64,000 nucleotides of DNA from Narcine bancroftii (lineage: Eukaryota): NCBI RefSeq assembly GCF_036971445.1, contig NC_091476.1, positions 159,712,001-159,776,000 on the forward strand, read 5' to 3'. The position numbers and the translations under genes are program-made. Below are positions 751 to 63,920 of the stretch, one piece after another. Every line of letters starts with the position of its first letter. Positions within the stretch are counted from its first letter, which is position 1. The notes below the pieces were generated by a model, which worked only from the letters and a program-made list of their open reading frames with translations, was not told where the DNA came from and made no database searches.

Positions 751-780
751 AGGGTATGTATGTATATAATATCTACCTCC

Positions 781-13575: not shown

Positions 13576-13626
13576 ATATAAGAATTGGAAATGGTTATTG
13601 TGCTGGAGAGAGTAATAAGGGATGTG

Positions 13627-14642
13627 TGTGACAAGTGATGTTATATTTTATATTGTATATAGAAATGTTTTAAAGGAGATAAATTGTGACAGGTTTTTTA
13701 GTGTAGGTCACATACAAACACTTCAAAACAGATCTCATTTAAAATGCCAGAGCTCTGCTCAAGCCATACAGTTCAGGCTCTGAGTGCCTTTGAAAAATTT
13801 CGAAGAATGCCTACAATGACTTCACAAGTATGTGTTAATTGGACATGCTGTGAAGTAATGGATTATTGTTGGAAATCAAAAGATGAACGAACTCAGAAGA
13901 TTAGGCCCGGAGCCGCGGTCTGTCTCCGAGAAGTTGGCTATTCTAAGAGTGTCATATGGTTTTCTCTGAATGAAAGGGAGAGAGAAATCAGTTCTATAGC
14001 AACAGTTGGGACTGGAAGATGACAAGCTGGCAAGCTTGTGGAAAAACACCATTTTGAAGACGGGTTGTGAGTTCTTAGTTCAACCTGGTCAAAGCCCTTG
14101 TGGTCCATACAAGAGCTGCATAATGTTTCACATGAAATAAGGGAAACAAAAAGGAACTCTGGTGACCTGAAAGAAAGAGGTTATCATCCAGAAAACTCTG
14201 ATACGGCAAGTTTTTTCGGCAAGACACTGAAGTGGCTGATCTAAAGGAATCAGTTGTGGGTGTCCAAAGAGCAACAAATCTCTTTATGAAAACCGACAAG
14301 AACCTTCCTGAGCGGTAGCCATTTATCTTTCAAGCACCGAAGCCTGGTGAAATTCATAAATGTTAAATTCTGTGCACAGTATAAAAGTTGCCTGCAACCA
14401 GTGAACTTGGAGGAGTGAGAAGTGAGATTGGAGTGTGAATTAAAGAACTTTTCTGAACTTGTACACACATTACATACAAGTGTTCTTGGAATTAGAGGGG
14501 AGTTAAGTTAAATAGTAATGAGTTAAAGTTTGATCCTGGTTTCATGTTTAAAGATAATTAAAAGTGGCTTTTGTTTAAGTAACCATTTGTCTTGGTGAAT
14601 TTCTATTGCTGCAGGGTTTTGGGGTCCTCTGGGCTTATAACA
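13627..14642 (-). mobile_element. Solo-LTR-like element, copy 3 (inverted)
   Basis: Reverse-complement homology to copy 2; TG...CA ends; no clear TSD. Confidence 0.75.
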
Positions 14643-15418
14643 AGAGACACAAATCCCTTTCCCTAACCAACTTAATAGTCAGTATTTTTGTATAGTTCAT
14701 GCATATTGTATTTTGAAAATTATTCCAGAAAATAGTATTGGGTAAAAATCTATAACCCCCTTGTTTTAGAATTTTCAATCTAAAACAGAAAATACAGGTT
14801 GGGCTACATCTGTAGCTGTAAGAAACCCTTTCTCAGGACTGAAAAGGAGATGAAAGAAGCTTGTAAAGTTGCAGGAAGAGTGGGGATGTCCCTGATGGGA
14901 TGAAACTCTGATGAGGAAAAGATATAAATGGATTTTCTGGGTCAATAATTGTGTGGTAACAATTAGAGAGTGAAATTATAGGCAGAAAAATATGGAGGTG
15001 GCAAAATGCATAAGAAGAGGCCTAGAAGGTCATGTTGGGCATGGCTCCACCCCCAGAGAGAAAATGAGAGAAAACAAAACAAGCTGAGCTCTTGTCACAG
15101 ATGGATAAATGATAGAGACTGGAAAAATTAAGTTGCCTAAAGTGGTAGGCTTTCAGATTGAGTCCAGGCGACAACAACATAACCTAAAAGAAATTGAGGT
15201 CTTGCTTCTCAAGCATGCATTTGAGCCTCACTATTGACAGTGCAGGACGCAAAAGACCAATGGACATTAACGTGCAGGCCGCAGGATCATTTTTTTGTTC
15301 ACCCATCCATATCCTTTCATCTGATTGTTGTCTCTATTTCTACACATTACTTGTCATTTTCTTGCAATAACATTCTTTGATATTTGTTAACATTTTATTT
15401 CTATTCAGATAGTTTTAA

Positions 15419-18500: not shown

Positions 18501-21500
18501 TTGCACTAAAGCAAGAAATCTGTGATGTTCTGCCTTTTCTGATTCATTGTGCCCAAGTGCTCTTTGAATGTCCAGATAGATCGGATAACATGGACAGTGC
18601 AATGAAAGGGCTCTCTTCAACTGATGGTTCTGAGGCAAAAACCTGCTCGAAAGATGCTTTGAGGTAGGAAAAAAAATACAATGCAGTATTTTGGCATCTA
18701 ATTAATGATAATTGTAGTCAGATATTACATCATTTCAACCAAGTGGATGAATCTATGACTGCTGTTCATATTGCAATATAACTTTTACAGTCTCAGCAAT
18801 ACCAAATTTACATGGAGGTTTTTAATATGTATATATATATAGACATGCTAAATCCAAGTATTTACAAAAGAAAGGATGGTCAATGGTAAAACATTAAAAT
18901 TAGCAAAGTGCAGAAGGACAGATGGGAGGAGTATGCATCTCACTGTTAGAGTGGAAAATAATAACAAGATAGAAGATTGAAGTCCTGGTTGAATGTGAAC
19001 ATTTAAAAATGGACACCCAGTTGAAGTTAACAAGGACATGGGTGATGGATGAATAGGATTTTGCTATTCTCTTCTCAAATGGCATAAACCTTGTGATCTT
19101 GGTAGAATGTGTGAGAGCAGCTCGAAGTATTTTTGGAATAATTGGATCTAAAGGACAATGAAGTACTCCCATGAGTTAAGATCTGGGTTCAATCCTGACC
19201 TTGAATTTTGTGTGTGTAAGTCAGTGGTTCTCAACCTTTTTCTTTCCACTTTAAGTAATCCCTATGCCATCAGTGCTTTGTGATTAGTAAGGGATTTCTT
19301 AAGTTGGTATGTGAATCCTCATAACAGGTGAAAGAAGATTGAGAACCACTGCTCTAGACCCAATTGTTAACTGAAATATTTTGCTTGAGAAAAATGGTCA
19401 TTGGCCCATTTGCTATGGAGTTATGACACCGTGCACATAACAAGTCAATTAGGTACGATTAAATCGGTGGTTTTCAAACTTTTTCTTTCCATCCCTTACT
19501 AATCACAGAGCACCTATGGCATAGGGAATACTTAGTGATATGTGAGTGGAAAGAAAAAGTTTGAAAACCATGGTTTTAATCGTACCTGATTGATTCTTTA
19601 TGTGTACGGTCTCATAACTCCAAAGGAAATGGGCCATTGACCATTTTTCTCAAGCAAAATATTTCAGTAACAATTAAGTTTAGAGCAGTGATTCTCAACC
19701 TTCCCTTTCCACTCACACAGCATCTTAAGCAATCCCTTACTAATCACAGAGTACCAATGGCATAGGGATTACTTAGTGGTATATGACTGGAAAGAAAAAG
19801 GTTGAGAGCCATTGGTGTAGAGTTTGCATGTTCTGTGTCCATGTTTGTTTCCTCGAAGTTCCCCTTTTTTTTGCCACATCCCAAAGTTGTGCCGGTTGAT
19901 ATCTTATTAAATGTGAGTTTACACATGTTTGTAATTTTGTATGGAAGAGTTTTATTTGATCAGTTTTAAAAATATTTAAAGGAACAATAAAGGCAGAAAG
20001 AGAAACTATTCCTGCTTGTTGTAATATCTCAAACTATAATAATTGCTTAAAATTTAAAGCCAGCTTCTCAGCAGTGAACAAGAGAAAACACTTTTAAATG
20101 CAAAGAATGGTAAAATTCGGCCGTGTCTTCCACAAAGTGAACTTAATGTTTGGCTAGTTGTTCATTTGATTCAGTGATTGTAATTAATGGTTTTCAGGGA
20201 TGAGGGACAAAGGCATGCATGTTGTTGCATATCAGCTATGGGCATATTGAATCGCCATTTAGATCAAGGAGCTGAGTGCCCAACTGTGTGAATTTTTAAA
20301 ATTTTCCATATTGAAAAATGCAAAATAAATTTGTGATGTATTATCATGAACATTTCAATTAGTTTGCATTGAATTCCCATTTCACAGTCATCCCACAAAG
20401 GTTATTTGGAAAAATTGAGCATTATTGGTAAAAGCTGTTTCTTAAAATGTGGGTCCACTTAAAATATTTAGCTAATTGTGTGTCTCCACTTGCAGGTTCT
20501 TATTACCTGGATTTTGTCACCTTTCAGCTGAGGATGCTCCACGGAAAATCTTAATTTCACATGGGTTTCATGTTTTGCTTCTCCGTTATTTTACACAACA
20601 GTGGGAAGTCTTCAATTCTTGCCAAAATGCATCGCTTTTGCCAGATGATTCAGAGATGAATCTTAGAACGGCTTGTGGAATTTTCCTAAATCTTGTAGTG
20701 ACTGAACCTGCACTAATCAGGTACAAAGCACTGCTCTCAGCTAAATATTCAAAATATAATGTAATGGTGAAAATTGGCTAAATCAGTGGAGATATTAAAA
20801 AAAATTGAAAAGTGTAATCTGGATTGTGAAGAGTTTGCAAGAGCATCAAAATGGGTTTATTTTTGTCTCTAACATTTAAATAATGCATATGGGGAGGGAA
20901 AGAGTGAATCTTCGATAATTAAATTGGCAAGAAATTTACTTGAAAGGAGTTCCAATGTAAAAAAAAAACCCACTGGCTTTCAATTGCAGCTCAAGCACAT
21001 ATACATGGAAGCTTAAACTTTGATCTCAAGCAACGGCCAGAAAATCTCACCCATTGATTTCAGCAGTATTCAAATTTGTTGCCATTTTTACTACAAAATG
21101 TCTAGCATCAGGATTGTGATTGTGTATTAATATTTTTGGATATGGGTGCAGCCAATCCTTTAGAAAGTAAGCTGTCTTCCAGGAGCAAAAATAATCTGCT
21201 AGAGGAACTCGGGTTGAGCAGCATCAGTAGGCGGAATAAGGTTGATGTATTGGAAAAGCTGAAAAGTTGACCATTCGTTTTTCTCCTGTTGATGCTGCTC
21301 AACCCACTAAGTTCCTTCACAGATTTATTTTTTGCTCCAGATTCCAGCATCTGCAGTCTCATGTGTGTAAACAACCTTCCTGTATAATTTCAGTCCTTGT
21401 AATGAGAGTAACACACAGTGCTGCTGGGTAAAGATGTAAAGGATTTAGGCCTATGTCAGGAAGGGAACTTGCAGTTGGTGGCATTTCTGTGCAACGGAAA

Positions 21501-33714: not shown

Positions 33715-36700
33715 GTGAGCGGGCAGCCAGATGGAGCCGGGCGGCAGCGAGTGGGCCCGCTCCCGGCCTCCCGCCGCCGGGCCAGGTCCTGTTCTCCGCT
33801 CCCTGACTTTAGACGGAAACTTTTTCGACTTTAGCGGAAACTTTTTCGACTTTAGCGGAAACTTTTTTGAAGTGAACTGCGACCCTGCACAGACCTGCCC
33901 TGGACCGGCGGGGGTTTCCACTGCGTTGAGATGGGCTGCAGTCCTATTTTAAACCCAGTGACTACATACAGATTGGCTGCTTTCCCGTATGGCAAAGCTT
34001 TGTAGGATTAATGCTAAATCCGAGTTTTTAAAAAAAATTGGCGGCAGATTCGATTATCCGTGGCGGGATTGGGCGGGTTTTTGTGAACAATAGAGCGCCG
34101 CAGACGCCTTTTTTTTGTCTAACCCCCGGTGACGAGATGTTGAGAACATTTAATTTTCAAAGGTCCTCAAGTCAAGTGCTTCGTCTTCAAAGGTCCCAAG
34201 ATAAAATGGGACTCGGGAGACCTTTAAGTCAGTGGCAAGAAAGGATTTGAGGAAGGATACACTGGCTTTGGAGACGGTCCATTGATCCGGGGATGAAGGG
34301 GTTGACTTGTGATGAAAGATTAAATCGTCGAGGATTGTATTCGCTCGAGTTCAGAAGAATGACAGGAGATCTTATAGAAACATATAGGATTATGAAGGGT
34401 ATGGATAGGATAGATGTAGGATTTTGTGTTGGCCGGGGGAACTAAAACAAGAGGACACAGTCTCAAGATTCGAGGGAGTAGATTTAGGACAGAGATGAGG
34501 AAAAATAGTTTTTCCCAGAGAGTAGTGAATGTTTGGAATTCTCTAACCAGGGAAGTGGTTGAGGCTGCCTCATTAAACATATTTAAAATTCGGTTAGATC
34601 AATTTCTACATGATAAGAGGAATTAGGGGATATGGGGAGAAGGCAGGTAGGTGGAGTTAGGTCATAAATTAGATCAGCCATGATCGTATTGAATGGCGGA
34701 GCAGGCTCGATGGGCCATTTTTGGCCTTCTCCTGTTCCTATTGCATGTTCCAACCCACGTTGCTTGTTCAACAGATGATTACTTCACCCTTTTAGTTTTG
34801 CTTATTTATATCAGCACATTGCAAACAACTGGCGTGGTCCCAAGTGCTGGAGAGGTCATAAATTACATCTTGAGCAATGATTTGGGGGGCGGTATATAAC
34901 GGGTACCCGAGGTTTAGAATTGTACGTGCAACGTGGTAGCAATCACTTCATGCGGAGTGGGGGGGGTCATTCTTCTCTAAACCGCGAGCGGGTGTGGACC
35001 AGGTGCTGGTCAGTGGGACGAGGAGGGTGGGGATTTGTTCCAGCATGGACTAGTAGGGCTATACTGGCCTGTTCTGTGCTGTATACGGTTCTATGGGTGT
35101 GGAATCGAGGAGGAATCATATTTAAACCAGTTACGTCTCCACCTGATCTCCAAATCAATACGAGGATTTCTCTCTCATTGTTGCTACTTCTAATCTAGTC
35201 AATCCTTGTGATTGCACAGAGATTCAAATGATTTTTAACCATTGAAATGTCAAGAAAGCTCAATGTTTTTAATTTTGTCCTTATTGTATCTCATCGAACA
35301 AAAATAATTTGTGTAATATCCATAGTCAGGTTTGTGATATCCCAGATTTATAACCATATACAGCACAGAACAGGCCAGTTTGGCCCTACTAGTCCATGCC
35401 AGAACAAATCCCCACCCTCTTAGTCCCACTGAATATAACCAAGTCCCACTGAACCAAGTACCCTGCCTTGTAGTATTTGGCTGAAAACATAACTGTGGCT
35501 CTTTCTGCAGCTATTCCATGATTGGTTGAGAGTTCATGATTTGCTCTGTTTTTGATTTTCAGCGACTTTATTAATTTTTAATTTAGACTGATGTATTTTA
35601 CTTGCAGTTGGGGAAATGAAATCTGTCCTTGTAAAGTCAACATCTAGTGGATGTGATAAGTTCTGTTGGCTTTTTAAATCATTTTCTTTGACATTCAGCT
35701 TTCTAGTAAAATTTTGCAAAACTTCAAGTAATCATTGTGCACAACAAACCTCAAAGCAATTCCATCTCCAGTTAAAATATTAAAACTTTTACAGTTTAAT
35801 AATTAACTTTAAGCGAGGTACAACCCCATACATGGTGGTCAAATTTCCTGGATTTGTATGTCAAAAGCTGTGTTCATTTAAATTTGGAATAAAAGCACCT
35901 AGGATTAATGGTGATACTTCTGATGACACTCATTTTTCCATGAAGGAAATATGACAATCCTGATTAGAATGTGCAATTCACTCACAAAGCAGCAAAAAGC
36001 TCTGTAACATCTGGAAAGCCAGACTGTTTTCGAGGCAATTGGGCATGGAGTGAAAATGCATTGTAACTACCAATGATGTCCACATCTTGTGAATGAGTAC
36101 AAAAAATATTTTGATGGTATGTTTGCAACTTTAGTGGAATACTGTTATTCAAGATTCAATTTATTGTCATTATAATAAAGCAGTGTCAAATATCAAATTA
36201 CTTATGTCTGCCATAAGGCAGACAGATTCACCATTGGCAGAAATTGTCTGAAGCTCTTCTTACAGTCAGAAAAAGAGAAGCAAAGGAGAGTCTCTCCCCC
36301 CCCCCCCCCCCCCGGAATCACGGTGTCCATAGATTTGCCTCCAGTGCCTCTGCTACCATCCAGTCCAGTCCAAACCATTAGCAACCTGACCTCCAGATCC
36401 AAACCTCCAACAGAGTCAGGAACCCTTCAGTGCCTTCGACACCCCCCTTGCATCCCAGTTCTGATACCTGGTATCCCTTCAGCCAGTTTCGAGCCAGTCT
36501 CCGGCAAGTCCACAACCCAGCGCGAATCTCCTGACAGCAGTCTCCAGCAACCCCCAGCCTCCTTAGGTTCCTCGCCTCGAGTCACCAGCATGCGTGGGTC
36601 CTTCAGCCACAGAGCCTCCTCACTGGTCCGCTGCTGCAGTCACCAGACTGTGGGTCATCTCTGCTTCTCCTTCTCAGATGGGGGGTGGTTTCTCCATTTT

Positions 36701-39700
36701 CTGGTGCTCTGGGGCAGTCCTCTCCTCCCTGGAGTCTGCAATCCCTCATGGCTGTTGCTGATCCTGTGGTCGCAGGATTTTAAATAAAACCATGTTGTTC
36801 GAAGCCTGTGCGGGGCTGATGGCATTTGACTGGGTGGTTGGACCTCGTGGGAGTGCTGTATCGCTCCCTGCAGGTCTGCGCCAGCGGCTGCACTGCCTTT
36901 CCAGCAGCTCTGGCAGCATCGCCATTTTTTGCTTTTTAATCATTATAAATCCCACACAATTTCACAAATCAGGTGCTGTTTTTCACGTGATTAATGCATG
37001 AATAACTGTCCTGAATTTGTATTTCATTCCAGCTGAATCTTGGAGATGAGGAGAAATCAAATGACAGTGATTTTGGCAGTGGCAAAGAAAGTTGTGGAAT
37101 GGACTCCCTGCATTGCAACAAAGAATTGAGTCACTTTAATGAAGGTTTGTGGTTGTTTTTCTACAATATGAGTTAAGTATCAGTATTTTTATCTAATCCT
37201 ATAGTTCTCAGCCTTTTTTCTACTCTTGTAGCACCTTAGGTAATCCTGATGGCACAGGATGCCATCTTTGCTGTGGTTAGTGAGGGATTACTTGAAGTGG
37301 TATGTGAGTGGAAAGAAAATGGTTGAGAACCATTGATCAAATCTAATATTGATTTTTCTTTTAAAAGAAGATGTTATCCATTATCTATAGATTTGAATGG
37401 CTGCTGTACAGGAGGTAGCCATTTGGTTCATTTGGCTCTTTGTAGGCTAACTTAGTCAGCCCCGTAGTCCTACTCTTTCCATGTAGCCCTGCAAGCTATT
37501 TTTCATCTCGTGGTTATCTCATTACCATTTGTAGTCCTGATGGACTTTTCCTGTCACCTCTGCAATCAGAAGTGGGATTGACTTCTCTTTAACATGTTTC
37601 AGAAGGCTGTCATAATTGTATGCACTTTATCAAATTACTTCAGTGCATTTTGCTTCAGGAAGAATCAACTCCAGCTTATCCTTCAAACCAAAATTCATTT
37701 TTCCTAGAACCAGTGTGATAATTTTTTCCTGTAGTTTCTCTTGCACCATCATGTCCTTCCTAAATGAAGATGATGGCGCTGCCAGAGCCATGGTAGCGGC
37801 AGAGCTACTGCAGGTGCAGACCCACAGAGAGTGAGAGAGAGGAGTAGCAGCTCTTCCGCAGGGTCCAGCCACCTAGTCGACTGCCTTTGGCAGTTGTCTG
37901 CTTTGGATGGCCCGTTGAGGGAGCTGACAGTGGTTTTAGTTGAAATGCTGTGACTGCAGGTCTGCATCCAAGATGGCGGCCCCTATTAATCAGCAACGTC
38001 CACTAGGCACTGCAGATTCTGGGGAAGCGGATGACTGGAGCAGGATACCAGAGGACAGGAAAATCACGCACCGTCTGAGAGGGAGAAACAGAAGAGATGA
38101 CTCGCGGGGATGGTGACCAAGGTGGTGATCTAGTGAGTGGGCTCTGCAGCTGAGGGACCAATGTACGTGGCAGGCTACTGGTGACACGAGGCGAAGAAGC
38201 TGTGGGCTGTTGGGAGACTCCGACTGGGCAGCGGACTGCTGGAGACCGGCTCGAACTGGTTGGAGGGGATACCAGGTATCTGAACCGGGATGCAAGGAGG
38301 TGCCGAGGGTGCAGGAGGGTCCATGACCATGGTTCTAATCTGGAGTTCGCGTTGCCAATAATTTGGACTGAACTCTGTGGTTGCGAAAGTGCTGGAGGCA
38401 AATTTGCATCTCTCTCAATAACTAAGTCTGACTTTAAGAGGCACTGAGGCAATTCCTGCCAGTGGCGAATCTGTCTACCTTGCAGCAGGCAGAAAGAAAT
38501 TTCATGTGACGTGACACTGTTTTATTACTGTGATAATAAATTGAATCTTGAATCTTAAATTGCAGTGACCAGAATTTGATGAAAGTTTCCAGTTGTGATT
38601 TTTCAGCTATTGTAAACAGCCTCCTTTTGTATTCTGTGATCTGTTTTTGAAGCCCTCAATCCCATGTGCTTGGCTAATTGCTTTGTCAATGTTTGGAGGA
38701 ACATTCATGATGTACTGTTGCTCAAGGAGAGAGGAAGGGATAAACCAAGTAATTACAAGTCAGTTTAATATTGGTAATGGGAAAATTATTGTAATCTTTT
38801 CTAAGGGTCAAGATAAACCTTCATTGAGGAAGGCATGGAGTCATCAGAATTAGTCAAATTACCAGTATGGAATTGGAAATGTGTCTGATGTAATTTTCTT
38901 TCATTGAATTTTTTTAAGGTGGCAACAATGAGCGAGGGCAATGCATTTGGTGTATTCTTCGGGGACTTTATTGTGTCTTGTGTAGCTGGGTCAAAAATTA
39001 AAATAATTTGAAATCTAAATAAGAATAGATCTGAATAAGTAGTCTCCAGAATTGTCTTGGTATTAGGAACAAAGAGTAGTGGTTGACAGGAGGTTTTGTG
39101 ATTGGGAAATAAATGGGTTTCACAGAACTCTTTACTCAGAAACCTGCTTTCTGGGATAATTGGTGTCTAAGATTTGGGTTTAGAAGACATAAGGAATTTG
39201 TAAAAGATTCAAAAATATGAGTGTGACTGTCAGTATGGATGAAGGCTTTAGAGTGAATATGCAGATGATCTGTACAAATAGACAGCAGAAGTCTGAAGTA
39301 ATGTATAAGGGGTTTGAATCTGGCACAGTCTCAGGAATTTGTATGTTCTCCCATGTCTGTATGGGTTTCCTCTGGGTGTTTTGGTTTCCACCCACCCTTC
39401 AAAACATACAGGGTTGTAGGTTAATTGGGTGTAATTAGACGGCATGGGTTCGTGGGCCAAAAAGGCCCGTACCACGCTGTGCATCAAAAAAAAATTACAT
39501 TTAATTTATATGAGAAGCTCTGATGCTTGAAGGAAACAACTGTAAAATAATTAAAATTAATCGAGAATTTGTTCGTACAAGTTAAGGCTTGGAATGCATT
39601 ACTTTCATTGAAGGGTAGACACAATGGATTTAATACAACTTTCAATAAGCAACATTAATTAGTTTGTGTGTTCACATTGCTCTTTAATGTGCTCAAATTG

Positions 39701-52300: not shown

Positions 52301-55300
52301 ATTTGTGGTTAAAGATTATTCCTGGATTTGTGGCTGAACAATGCACAATTTTCTTTCAGATCAGCTAAGTATCAACCTTGCTTACAGCTGGAAACCTCTG
52401 ATTACACAACAGATGTTGAATCGTTAAAAGACATCCCTCAAGATGATGGGGCAAGCAAAATCTCTGCTTCAGCACTGATTCCGGAAATGGAAGAATCCCT
52501 TTTAAACAATTTGCATAATAAAGAAAATATTTACCCTGACTGCTCCGGGAGTGAAATTCACATTGAAAAGAATGAAGAACGACAACAAGAAATGGTTAAA
52601 CATTTGAATATTTCCACTGACATGGAAAGCAGAACAAAAGATTACCTGAATCTCGAGCATCACACAGAATCTGACCATCATTCTTTCTCTTTGAAGCCAA
52701 TTGAGGAAACTGGGTCAAGTGAAAATCTTACAATTATGCCCAAGGATTCTCACACAGATAAAATAGTTCTTGAGAGTGTGGTTGGGCTCTCCAGTGATGT
52801 CTCGAGAGTTGCACAAGAAGAGAAGCAGCAGTTGGAGGCTGCTTCAATGAACAAGCAAAGAAAATCAAAATTGGAAAAATTACGGGTGCTGGGAGTGGAT
52901 CTAACATTCAAACCTCGCCTTTGTGCTAATGATGGTGCATTTGTTAACCTGGAGGAGCCAAAAGTAAACAAAGGTTATCTTTTTCATCCGTTGTATTTAG
53001 AAATTAAGTGACATTTTTCTTGAGGGTCATTTATGAGAAATTAACTTCTGGTCTGCTGAATTTATCACAATGCCACATCAGGTTGGAGCATCTAAAAAAA
53101 TGATAAGGTACAAAGTGCCACTTCAGATGAATTTCTGTAGGGCCAAATAGTGAAAGGTGACCGTTTATTTACCTTCAGAAAGAAGATATTTCATAAAAGT
53201 GCACCTCTGGTCACCCTTAAGCATTATTTAACTTCATTGTTGGAGGGTGGATCCAGTAGGCAAACTATATTAGAACATGTATCATGATTTTTATTTAAGA
53301 CAGAATCATTGAATTTTTAGAAAGTTTTTTGGCATTGTTTGATCCTGAAGTTCAGTCAAATTATTCAGCTTGCCAATTCTATGATTACAATAATTGTGAA
53401 TATCAAAGAATGATACTGTGCAAGCCTTTGAAAAAAAAATCCATACCAATTTAATGAGCCCCTTACTTTAGATACTCGTTCTTCATTTAGTTATCTAATT
53501 CCCAGTTATTTAATGTTTCCATGGTCCTTTTAGGTATTGCATTTGAGAGATAAATAAACTCCACCTCTTTTTGGAGTAAACTGAACTCTGGCTTGGTTGT
53601 ATTTTTGAGGAAGCTTTCAATTTCATTAAAGTTTGTATGTTTCCATGCATGTTATGGGTGTAATTGTACTTTTTAATGAATCAAGTAAATTTCAATTGAA
53701 CAGAATTGAATTCAATAGAGATTTCTTTCTATTCATCACACAATCTTTGACAAGCATTTTCATGAATTTGTTTTGTACTCAGAGCTTCAAGCATTAAAGG
53801 AGCGTTTCCTCAAGCATGGCATCAAATCTGTTAAGCAGAGTCAAGAGCACCATGTTGAACTTAACATTATTCGTAAAACTACCACTGCTGAGGGGAAGGA
53901 GGAGCTCAAAGCAGATTCTGTAACTGTGATCTTGGGCAAGAACGAAATGGAAGAATATGTGCCAACAAAACCAGGCAAGTAATAAATACAGATTGTTGAT
54001 CAAATTGATCTTTAGTTTTCAGCTTAAGGTTGAATGTAGATCCTGCACCATAATCAATCCCTTCTCTGGCCAAAGGTCTATGCATATATTCAGTACAGCT
54101 TTTAAAATGAATGGGGTTCAGTGACTGCTTTGGCACTATTTACAGTATGGGATTTGCCTTTAGTTCTGACATTCACGTGCAATCTGTTCCCACTAAACCA
54201 TATTTGCTTGTTTGTTATTGTAGATTTATTCTAAATTTATGTTGATCACACTTTTCAACCAATTTTCAAATCTATTTGTTTAGAAAATGGAAAGGAGTTG
54301 AAAACAATCAATCACCTTGTCAAATCTGTTTACTGTGTTATGAAGTAGTTTGAGAAATGGAAAGTGAATGAAGTAGAATAAATGAAGGTCGAAAGCAAAA
54401 CATATTGCCAATCTCATAAAGCTGATAACATTTCAAAGTTGGTTTCATTGTGCATGAAACAATATATTGTACTCCTCTTTCATTGCCAATATTTTGGCTT
54501 TGTTCTTTTTTCCCCAGGTAAATCTGTAAATGTAAATGCAATCAGAATATATATATATTTTTTAAACTTTATTTAAAATTTTATGACATGAATAAAATAA
54601 AAATTACGTTTAAAGAAATAATAAAAAATAAGATGATAAAAATTAGAATACTACATCATTAAACTACACAAATTAACCCCCCCCATAATTATAACACAAC
54701 ATTAATCATCTAATTTAAAATTAATCCAACCCTCCCCCCAAAATAAAGAGTGAAGAATTAATTAACAATGTTGTAAATAAAATAGAAAAAAACCCGCTTA
54801 CAAAAAAAGGATAAAACTTAACAAAAAAATTACTAACAACAAAAAAATATCAATACTAAAATAATACCCTTAAACATATATTTAAATCAAACATAATTCA
54901 TGTATTTAACAAATGAAATCCACTTTAAAACTAAATTCAAATATTAAAATCATATATCAACCACATATCTGTTATACAAAAAATCATAATTAATAATACG
55001 TAAATACAGAATTTCCATTAATACCGTTTCCTTTATAATTCATCGAGAGAACAAAAACATCCCTTAGAAAAACAATCAGATAAACTTTTTATTCCCTTCC
55101 CCTCCCCTTATATAAAAAAGAAAAAAAAGTTCAAACTCTTATAAAATTCTCCATATTCTTCATTTATAACATCTTCAAAATTCTCTATCGAAATTAACTT
55201 AATTTTATTAAACTCTTCTCCCTCAATGTATTTGTACTTAATTTTCTTCTTCTTCTTATCACCTTTCCCCTCATCTTCCTCTTCATCTAATTCAACATCC

Positions 55301-58300
55301 TCAATTTTTGACTTATTATCTTCTGTGACATCATCCTCTTAAAAAAGAAAGAGAAAAAACCACCCCCCCCAAAAAAAGAGAAAAAAAAGGAGAGAAAAAA
55401 ACCTCCTAATTCCAATCAGAAAACAAAAAGAGTTAAAAAATATATATATATTTATTTTAAAATAATAATTTAAAAAAAACCTTCACTTCTTAACCCAAAA
55501 ATTAAAAAGAAAAAAATCAGGTCGGAGGTCACAACTACCTCCTCCTGTTTAAACCACACAAAGCGGTAACTCCCCCAAAATATTGGGTGTGAGATAACTC
55601 ACAGGTAGCTGATGACTTCTGGAAACTAGTGCCCACCCAGTTCCCTCTCCCAACTCCCATTTCATTAAACTATCATCATTATTTAAACTCTTCTCAAAAA
55701 AAAGATAAAAGATTTATTTTTTAAAATCAACATTACCACTTCGGTCACCATTGCTTCCATTTCTTTTAAAAATCTGGATCCCACCTTACATCTCTACTCT
55801 CTTTGGAGACCTTGAAGGACTACATCGTTCCTGAAACTGCATGATTGGTAGAGACTGAGCAAAGTCCATAACCTCTTTAGGATTGTCAAAGAACTTTGGC
55901 TAATTTCCATCCTAAAAAATCTTCAGTACCGTAGAATGCCTGAATGTTGCCTTATGTCTTTTTTTCCACAACCGTTCTTTTACAGAATTAAATTTGCGTC
56001 GTTGAAACATAATTTCTTGACTCAAATCTTGATAGAAGAAAACAGGATTATTCTGAACCATCAAAGGAGATCTATTTTGCTGGGCATTTCTAGTAACTGT
56101 ACGTAAAATTGTCTCTCTGTCACAATAGTTTAAACAACGGATCAAAACAGATCTTGGATTCTGTCCTGAAAAAAATTTTCTTCTTAAAACTCTATAAGCA
56201 CGTTCCAGTATTAAACCTTCAGGGAATTTATCCTGTCCTAACACTCGTGGAATCCATTCAGTAAAAAATTTTCTTGGATCTGGTCCTTCTATGCCTTCTG
56301 GCAAACCAACAATTTTCACGTTGTTCCGTCTAGATTGATTCTCCAAATAATCAACCTTTTTTGCTAAATTTTTATTTTGGATCTGCAATGTTTCAATTAT
56401 TCTATTTTCATCTTGCAGTTGATCCTGTGCATCGACTAAACCTTGATCACACATTTCAAATCTTTCAATGGTTTCAAGCTTAAAAGCTCCATTAATGACT
56501 TCCGCCATCGCATTAATCTTGGAAATAAACAGGTTCACAAAATTAGCGAAGTGACTCGATACAGAATATATCTTATCTTCAAGATCCTTAACAGACATTT
56601 CAACAGAAGTAGATTCAGGCATAATGGGGTCTTGCTGTTCCTTGGAGACCACGGGATCTTCTGTCCCTTCCCTTAATTTAGTATCTTTTCTAGCAGTTTG
56701 ACTTCGTATAAAAATCCCTCTCAAAGTCGCAATGCCAGGAGACTGAAGATCAGGGTTATCTTTAAGCCAAATCTCTTTAATCATCTTCACTGAATCGATG
56801 TCTGGAAAAACCGTTGTAATTGAAGATGCATTTTGCAGCGCCACCACTGTAGCAGTCGAATGACAACTCTTTAACTCTCCAGCTGGTGGCGCCCCAGCTG
56901 ATTCAACTGTCAAAGCCTCAGCAACAGCACCCACAGTGGCCGTTGTGTGAAATACTGGCACCCGTCCAGCTCCTTGGTCCGAAAGCTGTTGAATGCGACC
57001 TTCAAAGAGCCTCACCGGCTTAAAACGGAGCTTCAATGCCGAATTCTGCACGTCCTCCTCTGGATCCATTCTACGCTGAGTCCTGGCTTCTTGTAAACAA
57101 TTTCGGAAAATGTAGTTTTTTACATCTGTTGATGTTTTCTTTTACCTCTTTTTTTGCATATAAACCATCAGGCACTAATCCAACACCACTTATTATTTAT
57201 AAACTTTTAAAAGAACTTTAATGGGCACTTAAAGACAAAACAATAAATCATAGTCAGGAGAGGTCTGGAAGGCACGTCTGTTCCCTACGCCATCTTGCCA
57301 CACCCCCCGAATCAGAATATTCTTAATGCAGCTCCTATATATCTCATTTCTTTGACTGAAGGCCATTGAATTAAAAGCTTTGACAAGTACTCTGTAAATT
57401 AGTTTTGCAGGAAATGGCAGAAGGGTTTTTCTGGTTATATATTTTGGAGCTTTAATTAATGCCTTGTTCTTTGTTGCGCGATGCAGGGGAGAAACTTCAA
57501 GTTTTGAAAGCCAAACTTCAGGAAGCCATGAAAGTACGGCGGTTAGAAGAACGCCAGAAACGACAAGAACTGTACAAACTTGATAATGAGCAGGGTTTTG
57601 AGGATGAAGAGGATGAAGAAGAAGAGCTGACAGAATCTGAAGCAGAGGAATCTGAGGTACATTCAATCTTAGATTTTTTAAAAACTTGACAACAGAAAAA
57701 AAGGCCAAGAAAACAATTATTATACAAGTATTCCCAATCTATGCTAAAAATTATTTTCTCCACTTCGACCATTCTGTTGATGTATACTGTGATGATGTGC
57801 AGAGGAAAGGGAGGGACAGGTGGCAGACAGGTTCACATTCATTCTATAACCTGCTCTATCCTTTGTATTGCTGGTTCAGATAAAAATATAAATCTTGATT
57901 ACTTGAACTCAGTTAATCAAAATACATTTATGAAGATGAAGGAAATTTATTTTAGTATGGAAACTAGAAATGCTCAAAAATATTTCTATATTTAAAATAT
58001 TTTCCCTGAATATTGGCATCAAAATCATGAAACATACTAACATTTGGCAGTTTAGTTCATGAGAAAGAAAGCTTTAGGCTGTGGTGTTCTTTGTGGTTTA
58101 AGTTGGTAAGCACACAAGTGGCCAATAATATTTGTTCCAATATAATATGATACTGGTTTATGGGAGGATAAAATAGACCATTGATTGCTTAATAAATGGT
58201 GGGATACTGAAAATAGTAGAAGAATGGAGAAACCTTGGTGCAGGTTGACAGATCCCTGAAGATGGCAAGACCAGTAGATAAGAAAATTATTGTAACATTG

Positions 58301-61300
58301 TAACTTAAGTAGGGAGGTCATGCTGGATCTGTGTAAAACTAGTTAAGAAAAATGTATATACACTATACCCCAATTTACAAATACTCACTTTACGCAGAAA
58401 CCTGTGTTCGCTATCCAATAGTAGTGAATGGGTCTTCACTTTACATCATTTCCGCTTATGAAAAGTTTCATAGGAACGCTCTACTTTCGTAAAGCGGGAT
58501 ATACCTGGGTCAACACTTCGGTGTGTTGCAGTACAAGAATTTTATGAAAACATTGCTCGGGCTCCAGTTCCAGTTATGTGGCGAAATTGGAATTGTTTTC
58601 TTTGGGACAAAGAATGGGCAGAGGCATTTAAGTGGGATCTATAAAATTGGGAGTCCGCACAAGAAGATCCCAGTTCCCTTAAGAGATCAAAAACTGGGGA
58701 GCATGCATTTAAGGTAATTTTAGAAGGATAAAAATTAACTAAATGTTTTTGTTCATTGACTAGGAATTGTTCACTCAATCTGAAATATTGGTGAGGATAA
58801 CACTGTACATTGAAGTATTCTGATTGAACATTTGGAGTTCTATAACCTGCTATTGTTTTGCATAAGGATAGGATGTTCTAAGAGCCTGATTTTATTATTT
58901 TTACTTTTGGTTCAGTTTTGGCATATTCAAACAAACACCCTTCTCGCGTATTTTGATATCCAAGTACTTGTGGCAGCGATCTTTGAATTTGTCAATTAAT
59001 TTTTTTTCTTGCATTAATAGCAGTGAATATGTATTTGTTTTAGACTGCAGAATTACTTGGTGATGGAGAGGACCCAGTGGTGGAAGCAGGTTATGACTCC
59101 CAGTCTACTGATGCAGCACAGAGTAGGTGAAACCCAATTAAAAGTCACTTCCCCATTTGACTCAATCTCCCTTTCTCTTTCCTCTTTTCTGTGTGATGTA
59201 CAACAAATCATTTGACATTTAAGAAGTTTTCTTGTATGTCGAAAAATTTTCATATTCTACATTAAATGTGGAATTTTCCTAATTTCTCTGTGGTTGAATA
59301 TACCATAGTAAGATTTTGTTTGGCCTGTTTATTTAGTTCAGTATTTTGATTTGGAAATGTTCACAAAATGACCTTTTCTCAAAGTCACTGAAGCCACATT
59401 TACTGAGGGAAATTTTTTAGTGCAATCTCTGTTATCAACGTTTCTAATTATCTGACAGACTTTACAAGTGGTCAAAGTTTGTGAACAGCTGGCTTAAACC
59501 AATTTCTCAAAAATAATTGTCAAGCCTAGTTTATTTTGTGAATTTACATGTCGAAATATACATTTCCTGTGATGACTTGGAACAAACTGAAGATTTGTAT
59601 TCTGGTAAGTGGATGTCCCTCAATGTTTGATGTGTACTTTTTTTAAAGGGCTGTTAAACTTGCTCAGCTTGATTGTGTGTTTAGGCAACAGTTCAGTTAT
59701 AGGCCTCTATTTTTGCATGGAACAACACATGGCACTAATTTTATTTAATGTATTATTTCAGATCAAGACCCAGTCACCCAGAAGGAATCTACACCAATAC
59801 CTATCAAGTCAGATTTTTTACAGTCCTTAAATTCTGGTACAGATTCGTCTTCTAAAACTAGGTAATTTTTAGATATTTGTACCATTTTGTGCAGTTTGTT
59901 TGTTTTCAATGGGCAGTTAATTGTAACTTGATTTCCTTCCTTTTTATTTTTCTTGCCTGTCTGTATTATTTTTTTTTAATTTTTTATTTTTCACACTATA
60001 AACCACATTGATCAAGATACATACATTTTCCTTTTCAAATATATACAGTGTCGTTTTATCCCCCCCTCCCTCTTCCCATCCCACCCTCCCTACCTCCCCT
60101 CCCATTCATTTAAAGTTCAGAATCTAAGATACATTAAACCCATCAAACAATGTTGTCACTCAATAAAAATAAACAAGAAATTCCACTGAGTCAATTCTTT
60201 TCATTTTCTTCTCCTTCTGTCATTTTAGGTGGTAGATGTCCCCAGTAGGTTTTCTCTATTGTGTTTCATGTATGGCTCCCATATTTGTTCAAATATTGTA
60301 ATATTATTTCTTAAATTATATGTTATTTTTTTCTAATGGAATACATTTATTCATTTCTATATACCATTGTTGTATTCTTAAGTTATCTTCTAATTTCCAG
60401 GCTGACATAATACATTTTTTTGCTACAGCTAGGGCTATCCTAACAAATCTTTTTTGTGCACCGCCTGTCTGTATTATTTAATGTTTTTCTAGTACCTAGG
60501 TATTTAAAATTGGAACTTCATTATTCAATCTAATCTCATCAGAAGTATTTTTCCAGTTGTGTGGAAAGGTTTTGGTTCATGATGAGATGTACAGGTATTA
60601 GATTTGTTGGTCAAATTTGCTGAAGAAAAATATTTTCTGGATGAAATAATTATGGTTGTGTGTGTGTATCCTTGATGACTGGACTCGCATGAGGTGCCAA
60701 TCTTTCCACACACTTTAAAATTGCCACAGACATTTGTGATATACAAAAAAAAAATCTACCCTTTCTATGCCTGTATTATTTGGTGATGAAGTAGTGCCAC
60801 ATTTGTGGCACAAAATTTTCAATTGATTCATTGTTGAAGATCTTGCTTTTTTTTTTTTGGAGAGCATTATTAAATGGTATGCATAACATATAATGTTGAC
60901 AATTGTATGTTTTCTTTTCCAGTGAGCAGACTCCTGGCAATAGATTAAGACTGCAACTTCAACAAACCCCACCCAAAGGGGACAGCAAACTTGGTAAAAG
61001 ATGTTGTTTTTTTTGTCTTGCATCTCATTATTTGCTAAAAAGAAATACAATGTTAAATTTAAGAGATTCAATATTCTCATATTTCTTATCTTCATATCTT
61101 CCTTTTGATTAATCAAAAAGCAAGGTATGAAATGCAAAGCAAGAAAGGCAGCCTTTTGATTCTTGGTGCCTGACCTGGTAAATTCAATTTGATTTCTTTA
61201 TTTCTGTTGAATCTTATGTAAGTAGTGATTACCCAGATTGCAGTTTCTGGGAGAACCTAATACAGCAGCATCTAATCCTTCCCTCTTTTCACTTTTATAC

Positions 61301-63920
61301 AATTTGCTAAATTGTAATTAGGACATTTTTTACATAAATACGTTTTGCTTCCTTGCATATTCTGCCTCAGTCCCAATATCTTAATTGCCAAATTGATTTA
61401 TTTGAATTTATTAATTTTGTAAATCTGTATTCTCATCATAAATTGAAGTATTTCAAAAAGTACCATCTATTTCCTAAATGTGCTTTGGTCAGAAATGTTC
61501 TTTTTGAAACTTGAGAAAGCAGACTCAAAGCTATCTCAAATCCATACTTCTGAATAAGACAGATTTCTAATGTGACACAGAGAGTCTTAAATCAGTATTG
61601 ATAACTTTTTTTGAATAAAATGTTTTTTTTTTAAATGTATATTAATACATTCAGATGAGGATGATTCCACCTCACAGACATCCACAACAAAGGACAATAG
61701 CCACAACAGCAGCTTTGAGCTAATTGGTTCAATGATTCCTTCATATCAACCAATTAGCAAGCATCCTGGCAGATTTGGAATTGCTATGCATGGAGGATTC
61801 CGATCACCATCACCTAACCTCTTTAACCCAAACAGTCAGTTTAAAACAAGCTTCATTAGTTCAGCATCTAAGGTAAGCTTAAGATGTTAAATTTAAAATT
61901 TATATGGATTTCAGTTATTGGTGTCTTGGATTGCAGGATTGTGGCATAACCCCAGCATTAGCTATTCCACAGATGAATAAGTAATACAGTACATTTTTTT
62001 TGGAAGGCCAACTAAAATATTGCCAATAAAATTGTTACTTTGGGAAAAACATGTTGCAATTATTCTTTTGTCTTGGCATTGTATCAAACTAAATTTTAAT
62101 GAGCAAGTACAAAAAAAAGAAAAATTAATGTTTTGTCATGGGGTAAAGAATACATGATGAGAGAGAAAATACTGTACAAACCACAAAATAAAAATATTAA
62201 TGCATTTTAATGTCATCAGAGTTCTGGGAAGCTATCCGAACCCTCCATGCCAGTAGAAGATTCACAGGATTTGTACAATGCATCTCCAGAACCCAAAAAC
62301 TCAACTGGTGAATCTCAGTTTAGGTTCTCTCTCGAAGATGACACACAAAGTCAGTTACTTGATGCGGATGGGTAAGTTGATGTATGCTTTAAAATGGCCA
62401 GATTTGTGCAAATAAGATCTTTTACCAAGTTAACAATTTATTTTTGTTTGGGGCTTAGAATTGTGTCCAAGATTATTAAGATGTAGATTTATTGATTAAA
62501 GCCACTTAATCAACAATCTTTAATTTGGAGGATTTTATTACTTACCACTTGCATTGTTTTCTAAAATACTGGAATTGTACAACCTCTGAAATTAATTTTT
62601 TGGACTAGGTTTCTGAATGTGGGTCATCGCAGCAACAAGTGGCAGCCATTAAAGCGCCAGCTAATCTTGGATAGCATGGATGAAAATGCAATGGATGCTA
62701 ACATGGGGGAGTTGTTGGGCCTTTGTACAGGAGATTTCAAATCTCAAAATATCGACCCACTAAAGGAGAGAAAAGAAAATGTCGATGAGCTGCTGGGTCT
62801 CTGCTCTGGGAAATTCATTTCTCCAGGTACACTCTTTCAGTTTAACTTAATTCCAAATGCTTTGAGAAGGGATTGGTGAATGTACTATGGATGTGTTATC
62901 TGCTTGTTGTTGCAGAACTTATTTGGGCAGGTGTGAATTTGAAATAAAAATAATCTAGTGCCATTATTCCTTGAGGGGTAGGAGATTTTGAGGAAGAAGA
63001 TTTTCATCCAGTAGGGGTTTGTAATATTGGGACTGCACTGCCTGAGAGCATCAAGGAGGTAGGATAACAAGTATTTAATGATCAGTTGATGTACTGTGAC
63101 AAGTAAGGGCACGGATCAAGTACTAGCAGATGGGATTAGTATATATAGGTAATTGACAGCAGGTGTAGGCACAGTGGGACAATTGGCCTATTTCCATGCA
63201 ATTTGACTGAATTCATAGAAGGGATATATTCTTGGAAAAAGTTTTGAGGTTAAATGTAAATCAAAATGCTGAGATATGTTTCTTGGAAAAAGTTTTGAGG
63301 TAAAATGTAAATCAAAATGCTGAGATATGTTTCTTGGAAAAAGTTTTGAGGTAAAATGTAAATCAAAATGCTGAGATATGTTTCTTGGAAAAAGTTTTGA
63401 GGTAAAATGTAAATCAAAATGCTGAGATATGTCATGGACATTTTAATATTTACTGCTGTGTGGAGAGGTGATGGATTATTTGTAAAATGAAAAAAATAGC
63501 TTTATAAATTGAAAGTTCAGAAACTCAATAACGTTCCAGCAGAAATGTTTAAAGCGAGGAATTGCATCACTGGAATTTATTTGCAGCAGTGTTTCTTTCT
63601 CCTTGCAGTCGATTCATTGTCATCCATCACTTCTGCTGCAAAGCAGCAAAAAGTAACGACCACAGCAAGTGATGATCCTATGGCTGAAGTTCTTGCACTT
63701 TGCTCAGGCTCTTTTCCAACAGACAGGTAATATTTTCAATTCTGCATAGTGTTGTGTGGATGAGTTTACATTTTACTGTTGCAATATACATTTTGAAATG
63801 TTTTAAGAGTGAAAAGTACTTTTTGTAATCTGTTATCATTTCTATCCTTCCAGGGAAGATGATGAAAATGAAGACGACCAATTTCAGTTGCTAACTGATG
63901 ATGAGGTTTTTGAGAATGAG
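33700..63920 (+). CDS. CLSPN: Claspin, coding exons 1-18 (about 1000 codons, 3' incomplete)
   Basis: Phase-consistent exon chain with claspin motifs: [29 protein letters not shown] box [40 protein letters not shown], and three Chk1-binding repeats ExxxLC(S/T)GxF. Confidence 0.96.
33805..33868. repeat. 21-bp tandem repeat, 3 copies
   Basis: Unit gactttagcggaaactttttc. Confidence 0.9.
34248..34750 (+). mobile_element. CR1 LINE 3' end
   Basis: [33 protein letters not shown] followed by a CR1 3' UTR. Confidence 0.9.
36147..36928 (-). mobile_element. Non-coding retroposon with (TTGAATC)n tail, copy A
   Basis: Reverse-complement homolog of 37768-38556; 5' ATGGCG motif; aataaattgaatcttgaat tail. 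Confidence 0.7.
37033..37144 (+). CDS. CLSPN: CLSPN exon 2
   Basis: ag|[22 protein letters not shown]...FNE G|gt. Phases 0 and 1 fit the neighbouring exons. Confidence 0.8.
37200..37336. mobile_element. Single mini-MITE unit of the 19222-19814 family
   Basis: gttctcagccttttt...gaaagaaaatggttgagaaccattg. Confidence 0.7.
37768..38556 (+). mobile_element. Non-coding retroposon with (TTGAATC)n tail, copy B
   Basis: Ends aataaattgaatcttgaatctt; homologous to copy A. Confidence 0.7.
39880..40790 (-). mobile_element. Rex1/Babar-type LINE 3' remnant
   Basis: [38 protein letters not shown]. Confidence 0.85.
40790..41240 (-). mobile_element. L1 ORF2 C-terminal (zinc knuckle) remnant
   Basis: YLTTQKL...SDTCFRCG...HFW...PQDPMLFLL. 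Confidence 0.75.
41271..43000 (-). mobile_element. hAT (Buster/Charlie) transposon, decayed
   Basis: [23 protein letters not shown] and the dimerisation domain [12 protein letters not shown]...DLRLKLT, with frameshifts. Confidence 0.9.
43490..43620. repeat. 14-bp minisatellite
   Basis: (aatta[a/g]cacagcaa)n. Confidence 0.85.
43836..44284 (+). CDS. CLSPN: CLSPN exon 3
   Basis: ag|[23 protein letters not shown]...KKQ|gt. Confidence 0.92.
44423..44587 (+). CDS. CLSPN: CLSPN exon 4
   Basis: [14 protein letters not shown]...[13 protein letters not shown]. Confidence 0.95.
45548..45622 (+). CDS. CLSPN: CLSPN exon 5
   Basis: tag|[25 protein letters not shown]|gtgag, phase 0/0. Confidence 0.8.
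45713..46120. mobile_element. pogo/Tigger-like MITE
   Basis: tacaggtcaactccg...cggataatcagagttgtatggta termini; internal atccgaa repeats. Confidence 0.55.
46150..46793 (-). mobile_element. Rex1/Babar-type LINE 3' end
   Basis: [19 protein letters not shown]...[13 protein letters not shown]. Confidence 0.85.
46965..47972 (+). mobile_element. Solo-LTR-like element, copy 4 (plus a short 5' fragment at 46792-46880)
   Basis: TGTTATG...CATCACA ends; homologous to copies 1-3. Confidence 0.75.
49080..49164 (+). CDS. CLSPN: CLSPN exon 6
   Basis: [28 protein letters not shown]. Confidence 0.95.
49259..49439 (+). repeat. Local copy of 47484-47654
   Basis: Identical apart from (CT)n length. Confidence 0.9.
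49608..50750 (-). mobile_element. Rex1/Babar-type LINE remnant
   Basis: [54 protein letters not shown]. Confidence 0.88.
51004..51112 (+). CDS. CLSPN: CLSPN exon 7 (PIP box)
   Basis: [30 protein letters not shown]. Confidence 0.95.
51500..52030 (-). mobile_element. Rex1/Babar-type LINE RT fragment
   Basis: [21 protein letters not shown]...[11 protein letters not shown]. Confidence 0.88.
52360..52973 (+). CDS. CLSPN: CLSPN exon 8
   Basis: SAKYQPC...[20 protein letters not shown]. Confidence 0.93.
53783..53974 (+). CDS. CLSPN: CLSPN exon 9 (GC donor)
   Basis: [12 protein letters not shown]...PTKP G|gcaagt. Confidence 0.92.
55132..55338 (-). pseudogene. Captured cytosolic HSP90 coding fragment (charged linker to start of middle domain)
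   Basis: Translates without stops to [69 protein letters not shown]. Collinear with HSP90 KP(K/E)IEDVGSDEE...[42 protein letters not shown]. Confidence 0.88.
55912..57069 (-). CDS. L1 ORF1 protein (coiled coil, RRM, CTD), prematurely terminated
   Basis: [39 protein letters not shown]1-like sequence continues past two TAGs ([17 protein letters not shown]). Confidence 0.88.
   Translation of the reverse strand: MDPEEDVQNSALKLRFKPVRLFEGRIQQLSDQGAGRVPVFHTTATVGAVAEALTVESAGAPPAGELKSCHSTATVVALQNASSITTVFPDIDSVKMIKEIWLKDNPDLQSPGIATLRGIFIRSQTARKDTKLREGTEDPVVSKEQQDPIMPESTSVEMSVKDLEDKIYSVSSHFANFVNLFISKINAMAEVINGAFKLETIERFEMCDQGLVDAQDQLQDENRIIETLQIQNKNLAKKVDYLENQSRRNNVKIVGLPEGIEGPDPRKFFTEWIPRVLGQDKFPEGLILERAYRVLRRKFFSGQNPRSVLIRCLNYCDRETILRTVTRNAQQNRSPLMVQNNPVFFYQDLSQEIMFQRRKFNSVKERLWKKRHKATFRHSTVLKIF
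57487..57656 (+). CDS. CLSPN: CLSPN exon 10
   Basis: [35 protein letters not shown]... Confidence 0.95.
58090..58850 (+). mobile_element. Old CR1 remnant with a nested Tigger-like MITE (about 58360-58507)
   Basis: Decayed CR1 3' motifs, interrupted by an inverted-repeat element (tttacg/cgtaaa). Confidence 0.5.
59044..59122 (+). CDS. CLSPN: CLSPN exon 11 (donor at 59089 or 59122)
   Basis: tag|[10 protein letters not shown]...; two phase-1 donor candidates. Confidence 0.7.
59762..59861 (+). CDS. CLSPN: CLSPN exon 12
   Basis: cag|..QDPVTQK...TDSSSKT|gtaat. Confidence 0.8.
59972..60462 (-). mobile_element. 5'-truncated young L1 (ORF2 C-terminus, 3' UTR, polyA)
   Basis: [15 protein letters not shown]...QWYIEM..PLEK...IWEPY. 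17-bp TSD gcctgtctgtattattt (59955-59971, 60463-60479). Confidence 0.92.
60923..60993 (+). CDS. CLSPN: CLSPN exon 13
   Basis: cag|EQTPGNR...DSKL G|gtaa, phases 2/1. Confidence 0.82.
61655..61872 (+). CDS. CLSPN: CLSPN exon 14
   Basis: DEDDS...[18 protein letters not shown]...GGFRSPSP...SSASK. Confidence 0.95.
62220..62371 (+). CDS. CLSPN: CLSPN exon 15
   Basis: [26 protein letters not shown]...[13 protein letters not shown]. Confidence 0.96.
62609..62826 (+). CDS. CLSPN: CLSPN exon 16 (Chk1-binding repeats 1-2)
   Basis: [21 protein letters not shown]...[10 protein letters not shown]. Confidence 0.96.
63225..63431. repeat. 51-bp tandem repeat, about 4 copies
   Basis: Unit atatgtttcttggaaaaagttttgaggtaaaatgtaaatcaaaatgctgag. 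Confidence 0.92.
63609..63726 (+). CDS. CLSPN: CLSPN exon 17 (Chk1-binding repeat 3)
   Basis: [17 protein letters not shown]. Confidence 0.95.
63854..63920 (+). CDS. CLSPN: CLSPN exon 18
   Basis: cag|[22 protein letters not shown]|gtgag. Confidence 0.88.

Follow-up and report, generated by a model that had tools for sequence, protein, structure and literature searches.

Can an L1-like retrotransposon that has an open reading frame 1 (ORF1) and no recognizable ORF2 multiply as a family, or is such a structure a single damaged L1? The question is raised by an element of the electric ray Narcine bancroftii, which occupies 54551-57309 on the minus strand of a 64,000-nucleotide (nt) stretch of contig NC_091476.1 (assembly GCF_036971445.1, positions 159,712,001 to 159,776,000); this whole stretch is called the window below. 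An earlier note, made from the letters alone, had described a complete, ORF1-only element of the half-L1 (HAL1) type. We find that the element is one member of a large family and not a one-off deletion. Our best explanation, which we hold to be quite likely, is that the window contains one copy of an L1 derivative that is non-autonomous and present in many copies in Narcine electric rays.

One insertion and its family

A single pair of target site duplications (TSDs) encloses the whole structure. Their 11-mer, AATCAGAATAT, is identical at both ends and occurs exactly twice in the window, and a common 11-mer turned up in 1/2000 random pairs of 40-nt windows at equal spacing. The element opens with a G run at 57309, and a YY1-type motif, CAAGATGGCG, lies at 57297-57288; this 5' end matches the pattern in PMC5381506. 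At the other end, an AATAAA polyadenylation signal (54573-54568, minus strand) is followed by A6 and a (TA) run. The TSD, the YY1-type motif, the AATAAA and the tail had been pointed out in the earlier note and stand as described, and the TSD, signal and A tail are marks of target-primed reverse transcription (TPRT).

The element lies antisense within an intron of a plus-strand host gene, which looks like claspin and which received no name from Pfam. The intron is removed by splicing: a contig of run X7 joins 53971 to 57484, which gives a GC-AG intron when a 4-letter ambiguity is allowed. Run X7 holds spliced host transcript as well as element contigs and cannot demonstrate independent transcription of the element. 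From the same contig and the sequence, we note that the element-bearing intron, 53975-57486, has a GC donor. Contigs from run X1 cross both element junctions with 0 differences (53730-54579 and 57284-58443), which rules out a faulty assembly of the insertion; X1 is possibly the window's own sample and gives the junctions no independent support. There was no empty-site joint among the 15 of 21 joints listed.

Six ORF1 gene models, 89-95% identical, are found on five N. bancroftii contigs. In X1, all 13 element bins have depths of 1,306-10,564 times flank (the median of the 13 low bins is 8.73). Depth summed over contigs does not give a number of copies, and a safer floor comes from one 115-nt ORF1 contig, which on its own reaches 494 times flank depth. 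The family's insertions probably number in the hundreds or thousands. Two single-copy contigs link the 5' end of the element (57307) or its tail (54558) to L1-like sequence, which indicates other insertions with identical ends. Near-identical pieces also occur in runs X9 and X10, from two other organisms. The proposal of a multicopy ORF1-only L1 family is therefore borne out by depth, siblings and joints, and the structure is not unique. That a single L1 lost its interior and an Hsp90 pseudogene was inserted locally, or that the assembly is at fault, would suit the lack of a second copy within the 64 kb, yet it is refuted by the depth, the joints and the X1 junction contigs, with the sibling proteins and a REXO4 copy (see below) also against it; we give it practically no weight.

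Does the family extend from ORF1 to the tail, or has the ORF1 of an autonomous L1 been joined by chance to a separate repeat made of an Hsp90 piece (described below) and a U-rich end? Several observations weigh against the explanation that we favor. No contig covers an entire second copy, and the linkage of ORF1 to tail elsewhere rests on depth parity, the joints and the REXO4 junction. Four X9 contigs depart from the element at 55371, with an agreement of 0.58, and some relatives thus have a different 3' part; as the departure is just upstream of the Hsp90 piece, these are perhaps a sister family without it. Mid-ORF1 also has less depth than the bins at the 3' and 5' ends. However, contig cover is unbroken from ORF1 via the spacer to the tail, and the depth of the Hsp90 piece matches that of ORF1: single X9 contigs reach 361 (ORF1), 397 (spacer) and 381 (Hsp90 piece), and the X1 bin with the piece has a ratio of 7,417. 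The single TSD pair encloses everything, and 0 of 24 listed loose-end rows (of which the full set has 1,111 more) fall at the ORF1 end or within 90 nt beyond it. On another contig, two REXO4 models terminate in a 97%-identical copy of the Hsp90 piece that is followed by the element's downstream sequence. In all, the Hsp90 piece is carried family-wide, and a chance union of separate repeats is very unlikely.

ORF1 and its cut end

The 385-residue ORF1 with its long N-terminal extension (57069-55912) was read correctly in the earlier note, but its completeness does not hold. The frame stops at a TAG at 55914-55912, meets a second TAG at 55902 and is open onward to 55786, and homology to L1 ORF1p spans both stops. 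The window ORF1 is thus incomplete: the TAG removes the last strand of the C-terminal domain (CTD) and a helix. In the AlphaFold model of P0014, a sibling that reads through, the stop lies after a predicted strand at 383-387, and the strand at 393-396 and the helix at 399-408 are lost. P0014 and the older family have glutamine at both TAG positions. The ORF1s of P0002, P0005 and P0015 end at the window's stop residue, and P0003 ends earlier. The stop is shared by four of the five young copies that reach the site (the window, P0002, P0005 and P0015; not P0014), and because these are on different contigs, a stop-bearing source element must have kept copying. On our explanation, the youngest subfamily would have lost the end of its CTD by a C-to-T stop and continued to multiply.

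The protein is an L1-clade ORF1p with the coiled coil-RRM-CTD fold. A profile of 11 relatives matched human L1 ORF1p at E 2e-12. The P0014 model is disordered over residues 1-158 and continues with a helix (159-249), the RRM and the CTD; with this model, Foldseek gave 11 matches at E <= 0.001, all of them human ORF1p (2ykp, E 5e-11). Pfam found no family for the window ORF1 protein, with or without read-through, and its Transposase_22 family was matched by 1 of the 11 members of the alignment of relatives.

The long N-terminus is real but old, being common to three Narcine families that are about 93%, 66% and 45% identical to the window. Among the best 150 of 8536 ORF1 profile matches, most are 280-300 residues long, and those that align from the start of the profile come from Narcine. 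N. bancroftii gene models make up 8 of 12 ORF1 homologues (3120 candidates). The stretch 57168-57070 is a frameshifted relic of a longer N-terminus, a part that the older families still translate, and a tblastn of P0004 against the element begins at 57168. Another Narcine ORF1, P0147, has 320 residues. In an ORF1 tree of 30 rows picked from 131 aligned, plus the window and P0146 and with P0005 left out, the three Narcine families are arranged as a ladder, which a long branch (0.61; 100/100) sets among ray L1 ORF1s; the window, P0002, P0003 and P0015 group at 99/93, apart from P0014. Among relatives with a name, the closest are L1 ORF1s from rays and teleosts. Coding capacity of ORF1 was kept across the three Narcine families, but four of five young copies have a cut CTD.

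Is the shortened protein still in use? The youngest subfamily may be a passenger like a short interspersed element (SINE), taking both proteins in trans, with the 385-residue frame a decaying relic. Such a passenger could do without the CTD strand and helix that the shared stop deletes, and its older N-terminus is also gone by frameshift. A CTD-truncated ORF1p in successful copies indeed fits badly with a strict need in cis, which counts against our explanation. Nevertheless, the frame is open for 384-387 codons in the window, P0002 and P0015 (358 in P0003), and ORF1 held its C's while the Hsp90 passenger lost them, a weak argument, as gene models favor open frames. We consider a SINE-like passenger possible but doubtful, and prefer an element that has its own ORF1p.

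The captured Hsp90-alpha piece and the loss of C

Behind ORF1, the earlier note had seen a 3' region with no recognizable endonuclease (EN) or reverse transcriptase (RT). This description stands as far as EN and RT go, but the region is not featureless, as 55338-55131 is Hsp90. The piece is 208 bp long (Pfam HSP90, E 9.6e-9; PDB, E 4e-13), and 51 of 69 residues are identical to N. bancroftii Hsp90-alpha. Among the 120 of 512 matches listed, the copy at the end of an N. bancroftii REXO4 model ranks first. N. bancroftii Hsp90-alpha comes second, and most entries after it are Hsp90-alpha proteins of other sharks and rays. A one-residue gap is common to the piece and Narcine Hsp90-alpha and is not seen in the four other chondrichthyan proteins aligned, which places the capture after the gap arose; in our scenario, it would follow the split of the Narcine lineage from other rays. 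Two of the four REXO4 models end in the Hsp90 piece and the element's downstream sequence, and the other two have a normal end; in the copy concerned, the spacer's end, a pyrimidine tract plus AG, is a splice acceptor. Further Hsp90 sequence in the spacer, distal region and 5' untranslated region (UTR) was not detected by an erosion-tolerant search (17.6-18.8, against shuffle maxima of 20.6-24.3 and a control of 173).

How was the piece acquired? Hsp90 mRNA is abundant, and together with the orientation and position of the piece, this makes capture by template switching most likely, with mRNA or DNA as the donor. We propose that the switch onto Hsp90-alpha mRNA would have occurred during reverse transcription, and that the piece then became a passenger. 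Similar T-rich tracts flank it (55342-55352 and 55110-55130), either as microhomology or by low-complexity chance. The lineage has been incorporated as exons into host gene models (proteins P0019, P0139, P0005 and P0010): the Hsp90 piece terminates REXO4 models X1 and X2, and ORF1 stands at the end of a GALNT6-like model and at the start of a GPR139 model. ORF1 chimeras of a similar kind are named in other rays.

The piece has lost nearly all of its C's on the sense strand. At codon positions fixed by the host residue ("obligatory" bases), 9 of 11 C's are now T, while 9 of 121 other bases are altered (A 4/71, G 5/36, T 0/14), including G to A at 3 of 36 (Fisher tests: C versus other bases, p 9e-8; C>T versus G>A, p 8e-6). 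The asymmetry is not CpG decay, because that would affect both strands alike. In ORF1, the comparison with the 65% family gives C>T at 12/90 and G>A at 10/144 (p 0.11), and the polarized subset gives 3/38 and 2/66; ORF1 kept its C's, as expected if selection protected it. Of the rows listed in which the window copy itself departs from the family majority, 33 lie in the element: T>C accounts for 8 of them, C>T for 7, G>A for 6, A>G for 4 and other changes for 8. Given the even spectrum of these late changes and the C's retained in ORF1, the bias belongs to the replicating lineage. Singleton mutations of C>T plus G>A in PMC7140322 agree with the balanced changes. The proportion C/(C+T) is 0.34 in the 5' UTR, 0.20 in the spacer and 0.10 in both the Hsp90 piece and the distal region, next to 0.16 in the neighboring L1 3' UTR and 0.31-0.38 in introns; the low values in the spacer, distal region and L1 3' UTR suggest that the bias may be common to L1. 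We therefore envisage that each replication round would impose sense-strand C-to-T pressure, with ORF1 under purifying selection for most of its history.

There are caveats to a uniform pressure of this kind. The C-to-T count uses 11 sites and the host protein, not host DNA, and the 33 rows are those within the element among the 40 listed, best supported of 252 (7 lie outside it). The 5' UTR is not C-poor, and at ORF1 NNY third positions, T is found in 59/76, compared with 49/79, 30/48 and 22/32 in host exons, a C-poverty less than strong uniform pressure predicts. The uneven depletion would fit editing of 3' untranslated RNA, selection, or a 3' module eroded before it joined ORF1. Mammalian APOBEC1 edits untranslated 3' RNA. 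WRC is the AID-type motif, and this context is found at about half of the lost C's and at neither of the kept ones, few sites as these 11 are. For frog and fish, PMC5381506 states that APOBEC3 is absent.

It is tempting to ask whether the loss of C is mutational at all. An unstructured U/G-rich RNA with few C's might be favored by selection, or hypermutation might have struck once, at capture. Either would accord with the regional range of C/(C+T) and with ORF1 silent sites being less C-depleted than the Hsp90 piece, and PMC7140322 argues that selection acts on the base composition of long interspersed elements (LINEs). However, both ORF1 stops lie at sibling glutamine codons and are C-to-T changes outside CpG, not what compositional selection would promote, and 9/11 sites is very thorough for weak selection. 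We judge these explanations unlikely. As for the source of a replication-linked bias, we would tentatively put first the deamination of C to U in the element's RNA, which reverse transcription then fixes; G:T mispairing in second-strand synthesis and deamination of the exposed plus strand are, taken together, also conceivable; and selection on RNA composition is improbable as the source.

A bolder reading is that every replication exposes L1-dependent RNAs in electric rays to a strong C-to-U(T) mutator of the sense strand, which exceeds the rate of G-to-A changes at least 10 times and stems from an RNA deaminase or from a kind of ORF2p error that has not been described in LINEs; we think this doubtful. 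If it were true, the mutator would explain why the untranslated regions of fish L1s are rich in U and poor in C, and it would now be eroding ORF1, bringing a HAL1-type element near to a protein-free, SINE-like state. The Hsp90 piece would then be a polarized neutral reference that makes the mutator measurable.

The missing ORF2, the neighborhood and known elements

No remnant of ORF2 was found in the 3' region, within the reach of the tests, in line with the earlier note's reading that EN and RT are missing there. For EN and RT, Pfam gave 0 matches in all six frames and PDB gave none in the three sense frames, and a tblastn search of the element with an RT-domain protein from fish was equally negative. 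The spacer is probably an old inter-ORF region, given its length and composition; fish L1 inter-ORF regions are 311-730 bp with T repeats (PMC5381506). The distal region has no match to Hsp90, the neighboring L1 fragment or Rfam (a search with 0 matches). The TPRT marks and lack of RT suggest mobilization by L1 ORF2p in trans. In such a cycle, the element would be transcribed from its internal promoter, its own ORF1p would be made in cis, and ORF2p would be borrowed from an autonomous L1 for TPRT, as proposed for HAL1.

Which L1 could have helped? The earlier note had pointed to the young fragment at 59972-60462, presumably an L1 ORF2 end. This belongs to an abundant family (27,580-104,946 times flank) and has its own TSD, but the suggested link to the element did not hold up. 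The element has no match to two local L1-like fragments; in all eight 3' comparisons with the window's only young L1, 9-185 of 200 shuffles scored equally high, and for 3' or 5' sequence in common with the fragment, 12 of 12 comparisons were not above shuffles (strict; best 9/200). No library confirmed the L1 ORF2 identity of the fragment, and ESM Atlas gave no more than a lead, namely unnamed chordate clusters with low recognition (score 0.94). Several points count against borrowing as proposed: no helper L1 was identified, the neighboring fragment having no 3' end in common; the ORF2 tests are blind to the ORF2 C-terminus, as a control, 60219-60462, was recognized neither by Pfam or PDB nor in the homologue search; and old ORF2 remnants would be masked by erosion. 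The tail is also short, and the target site poorly fits TTTT/AA, the L1 endonuclease consensus.

Table 1. Features of the element and its surroundings (window coordinates)
Feature	Position	Strand	Basis or remark
TSD, element's 5' side	57310..57320	.	exact 11-mer match to other end
5' UTR, 240 nt	57070..57309	-	G run and YY1-type motif
ORF1, 385 aa: ~155 aa disordered N-terminus, long coiled coil, RRM, cut CTD	55912..57069	-	
Former ORF1 end (last CTD strand, helix, tail)	55786..55911	-	translated in sibling P0014
Non-coding spacer, ~445 nt, T tracts	55342..55785	-	length and composition
Host Hsp90-alpha coding piece, aa 242-311, sense, C-to-T eroded	55131..55338	-	Pfam, PDB, alignment
Distal 3' region, 50% T and 5% C	54564..55130	-	AATAAA at 54573-54568
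Tail: A6, then (TA) run	54551..54563	-	sequence; other-locus contig joins at 54558
TSD, element's 3' side	54540..54550	.	exact 11-mer match to other end
5'-truncated L1-like 3' end	59972-60462	-	17-bp TSD; frameshift at A run
Neurochondrin exon, large	16005-17063	+	Pfam E 1.2e-103

The rest of the window holds a neurochondrin exon (Table 1) and further repeats. At ~40700-41400 (-), an old ORF2-like fragment with a decayed cysteine motif lies beside a fragment of another kind of LINE, to which several further sequences in the window are related. A 197-codon open frame at 708-1298 (+) resembles the end of an RTE-type ORF, and open frames at 7970-8437 (-) and 42261-42671 (-) resemble remnants of pogo-like and hAT-like DDE transposases, respectively. 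A very short repeat-family stretch at ~58410-58466 has a bin depth of 232 times flank. Long inverted-repeat pairs (like miniature inverted-repeat transposable elements, or inverted copies of repeats) and 14-bp and 51-bp tandem arrays are found at 12020-14659, 19252-19775, 36147-38553, 43512-43637 and 63178-63483.

How does the family compare with known elements? Our literature searches turned up no account of ORF1-only L1s from sharks or rays, nor of an element that captured Hsp90, though Repbase, Dfam and supplements may hold entries. The closest likeness is to HAL1 of mammals, which, in PMC5753468, PMC5786205, PMC3627910 and PMC4161310, is also L1-derived, ORF1-only and multicopy, with TSD and A tail, an ORF1 open through successive families and ORF2p presumably supplied in trans. 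Unlike HAL1, the ray element has a cartilaginous fish as host, a host gene fragment, no 3' end in common with the one local L1 and a truncated CTD in its youngest subfamily. Its ORF1 groups with ray L1 ORF1s in a tree that has no mammalian HAL1, HAL1B or guinea-pig HAL1, pointing to an independent origin; it works like HAL1 in the features tested but is probably not its descendant. HeT-A (Jockey clade) and Ag-Sponge (CR1 clade) are likewise ORF1p-only, non-autonomous LINEs that borrow RT (PMC5786205). In contrast to these, which belong to other clades and hosts, the fold here is that of L1 ORF1p. Host RNA pieces joined to retroelements by template switching or splicing and then amplified are familiar from chimeric retrocopies made by L1 and from composites like U6-L1 and SVA; here, the piece is protein-coding and lies inside an ORF1-coding element, where ORF2 would begin.

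The short 5' UTR with a G-rich start, long T-rich inter-ORF region, AATAAA and T-rich, low-GC 3' UTR recall fish and frog L1s (PMC5381506). In contrast to those, ORF2 is absent, ORF1p has 385-470 residues rather than mostly 280-300 (best 150 relatives), and the coiled coil starts at residue 159 rather than at 2-123 (PMC5381506). The erosion resembles APOBEC3 editing in being a strand-specific transition bias fixed during replication, but APOBEC3 causes G-to-A changes on the positive strand (PMC9099904), whereas those here are C-to-T. A host piece of known ancestral sequence, taken through many rounds of replication, separates replication-cycle mutation from genomic decay and protein selection, and the intact and CTD-stop subfamilies are a natural test of the need for ORF1p in cis. 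For annotation, copies give alternative last exons to host models (REXO4, GALNT6-like) and will be mis-called as Hsp90 pseudogenes. With this family, ORF1-only L1s extend to cartilaginous fish, as an origin probably independent of HAL1.

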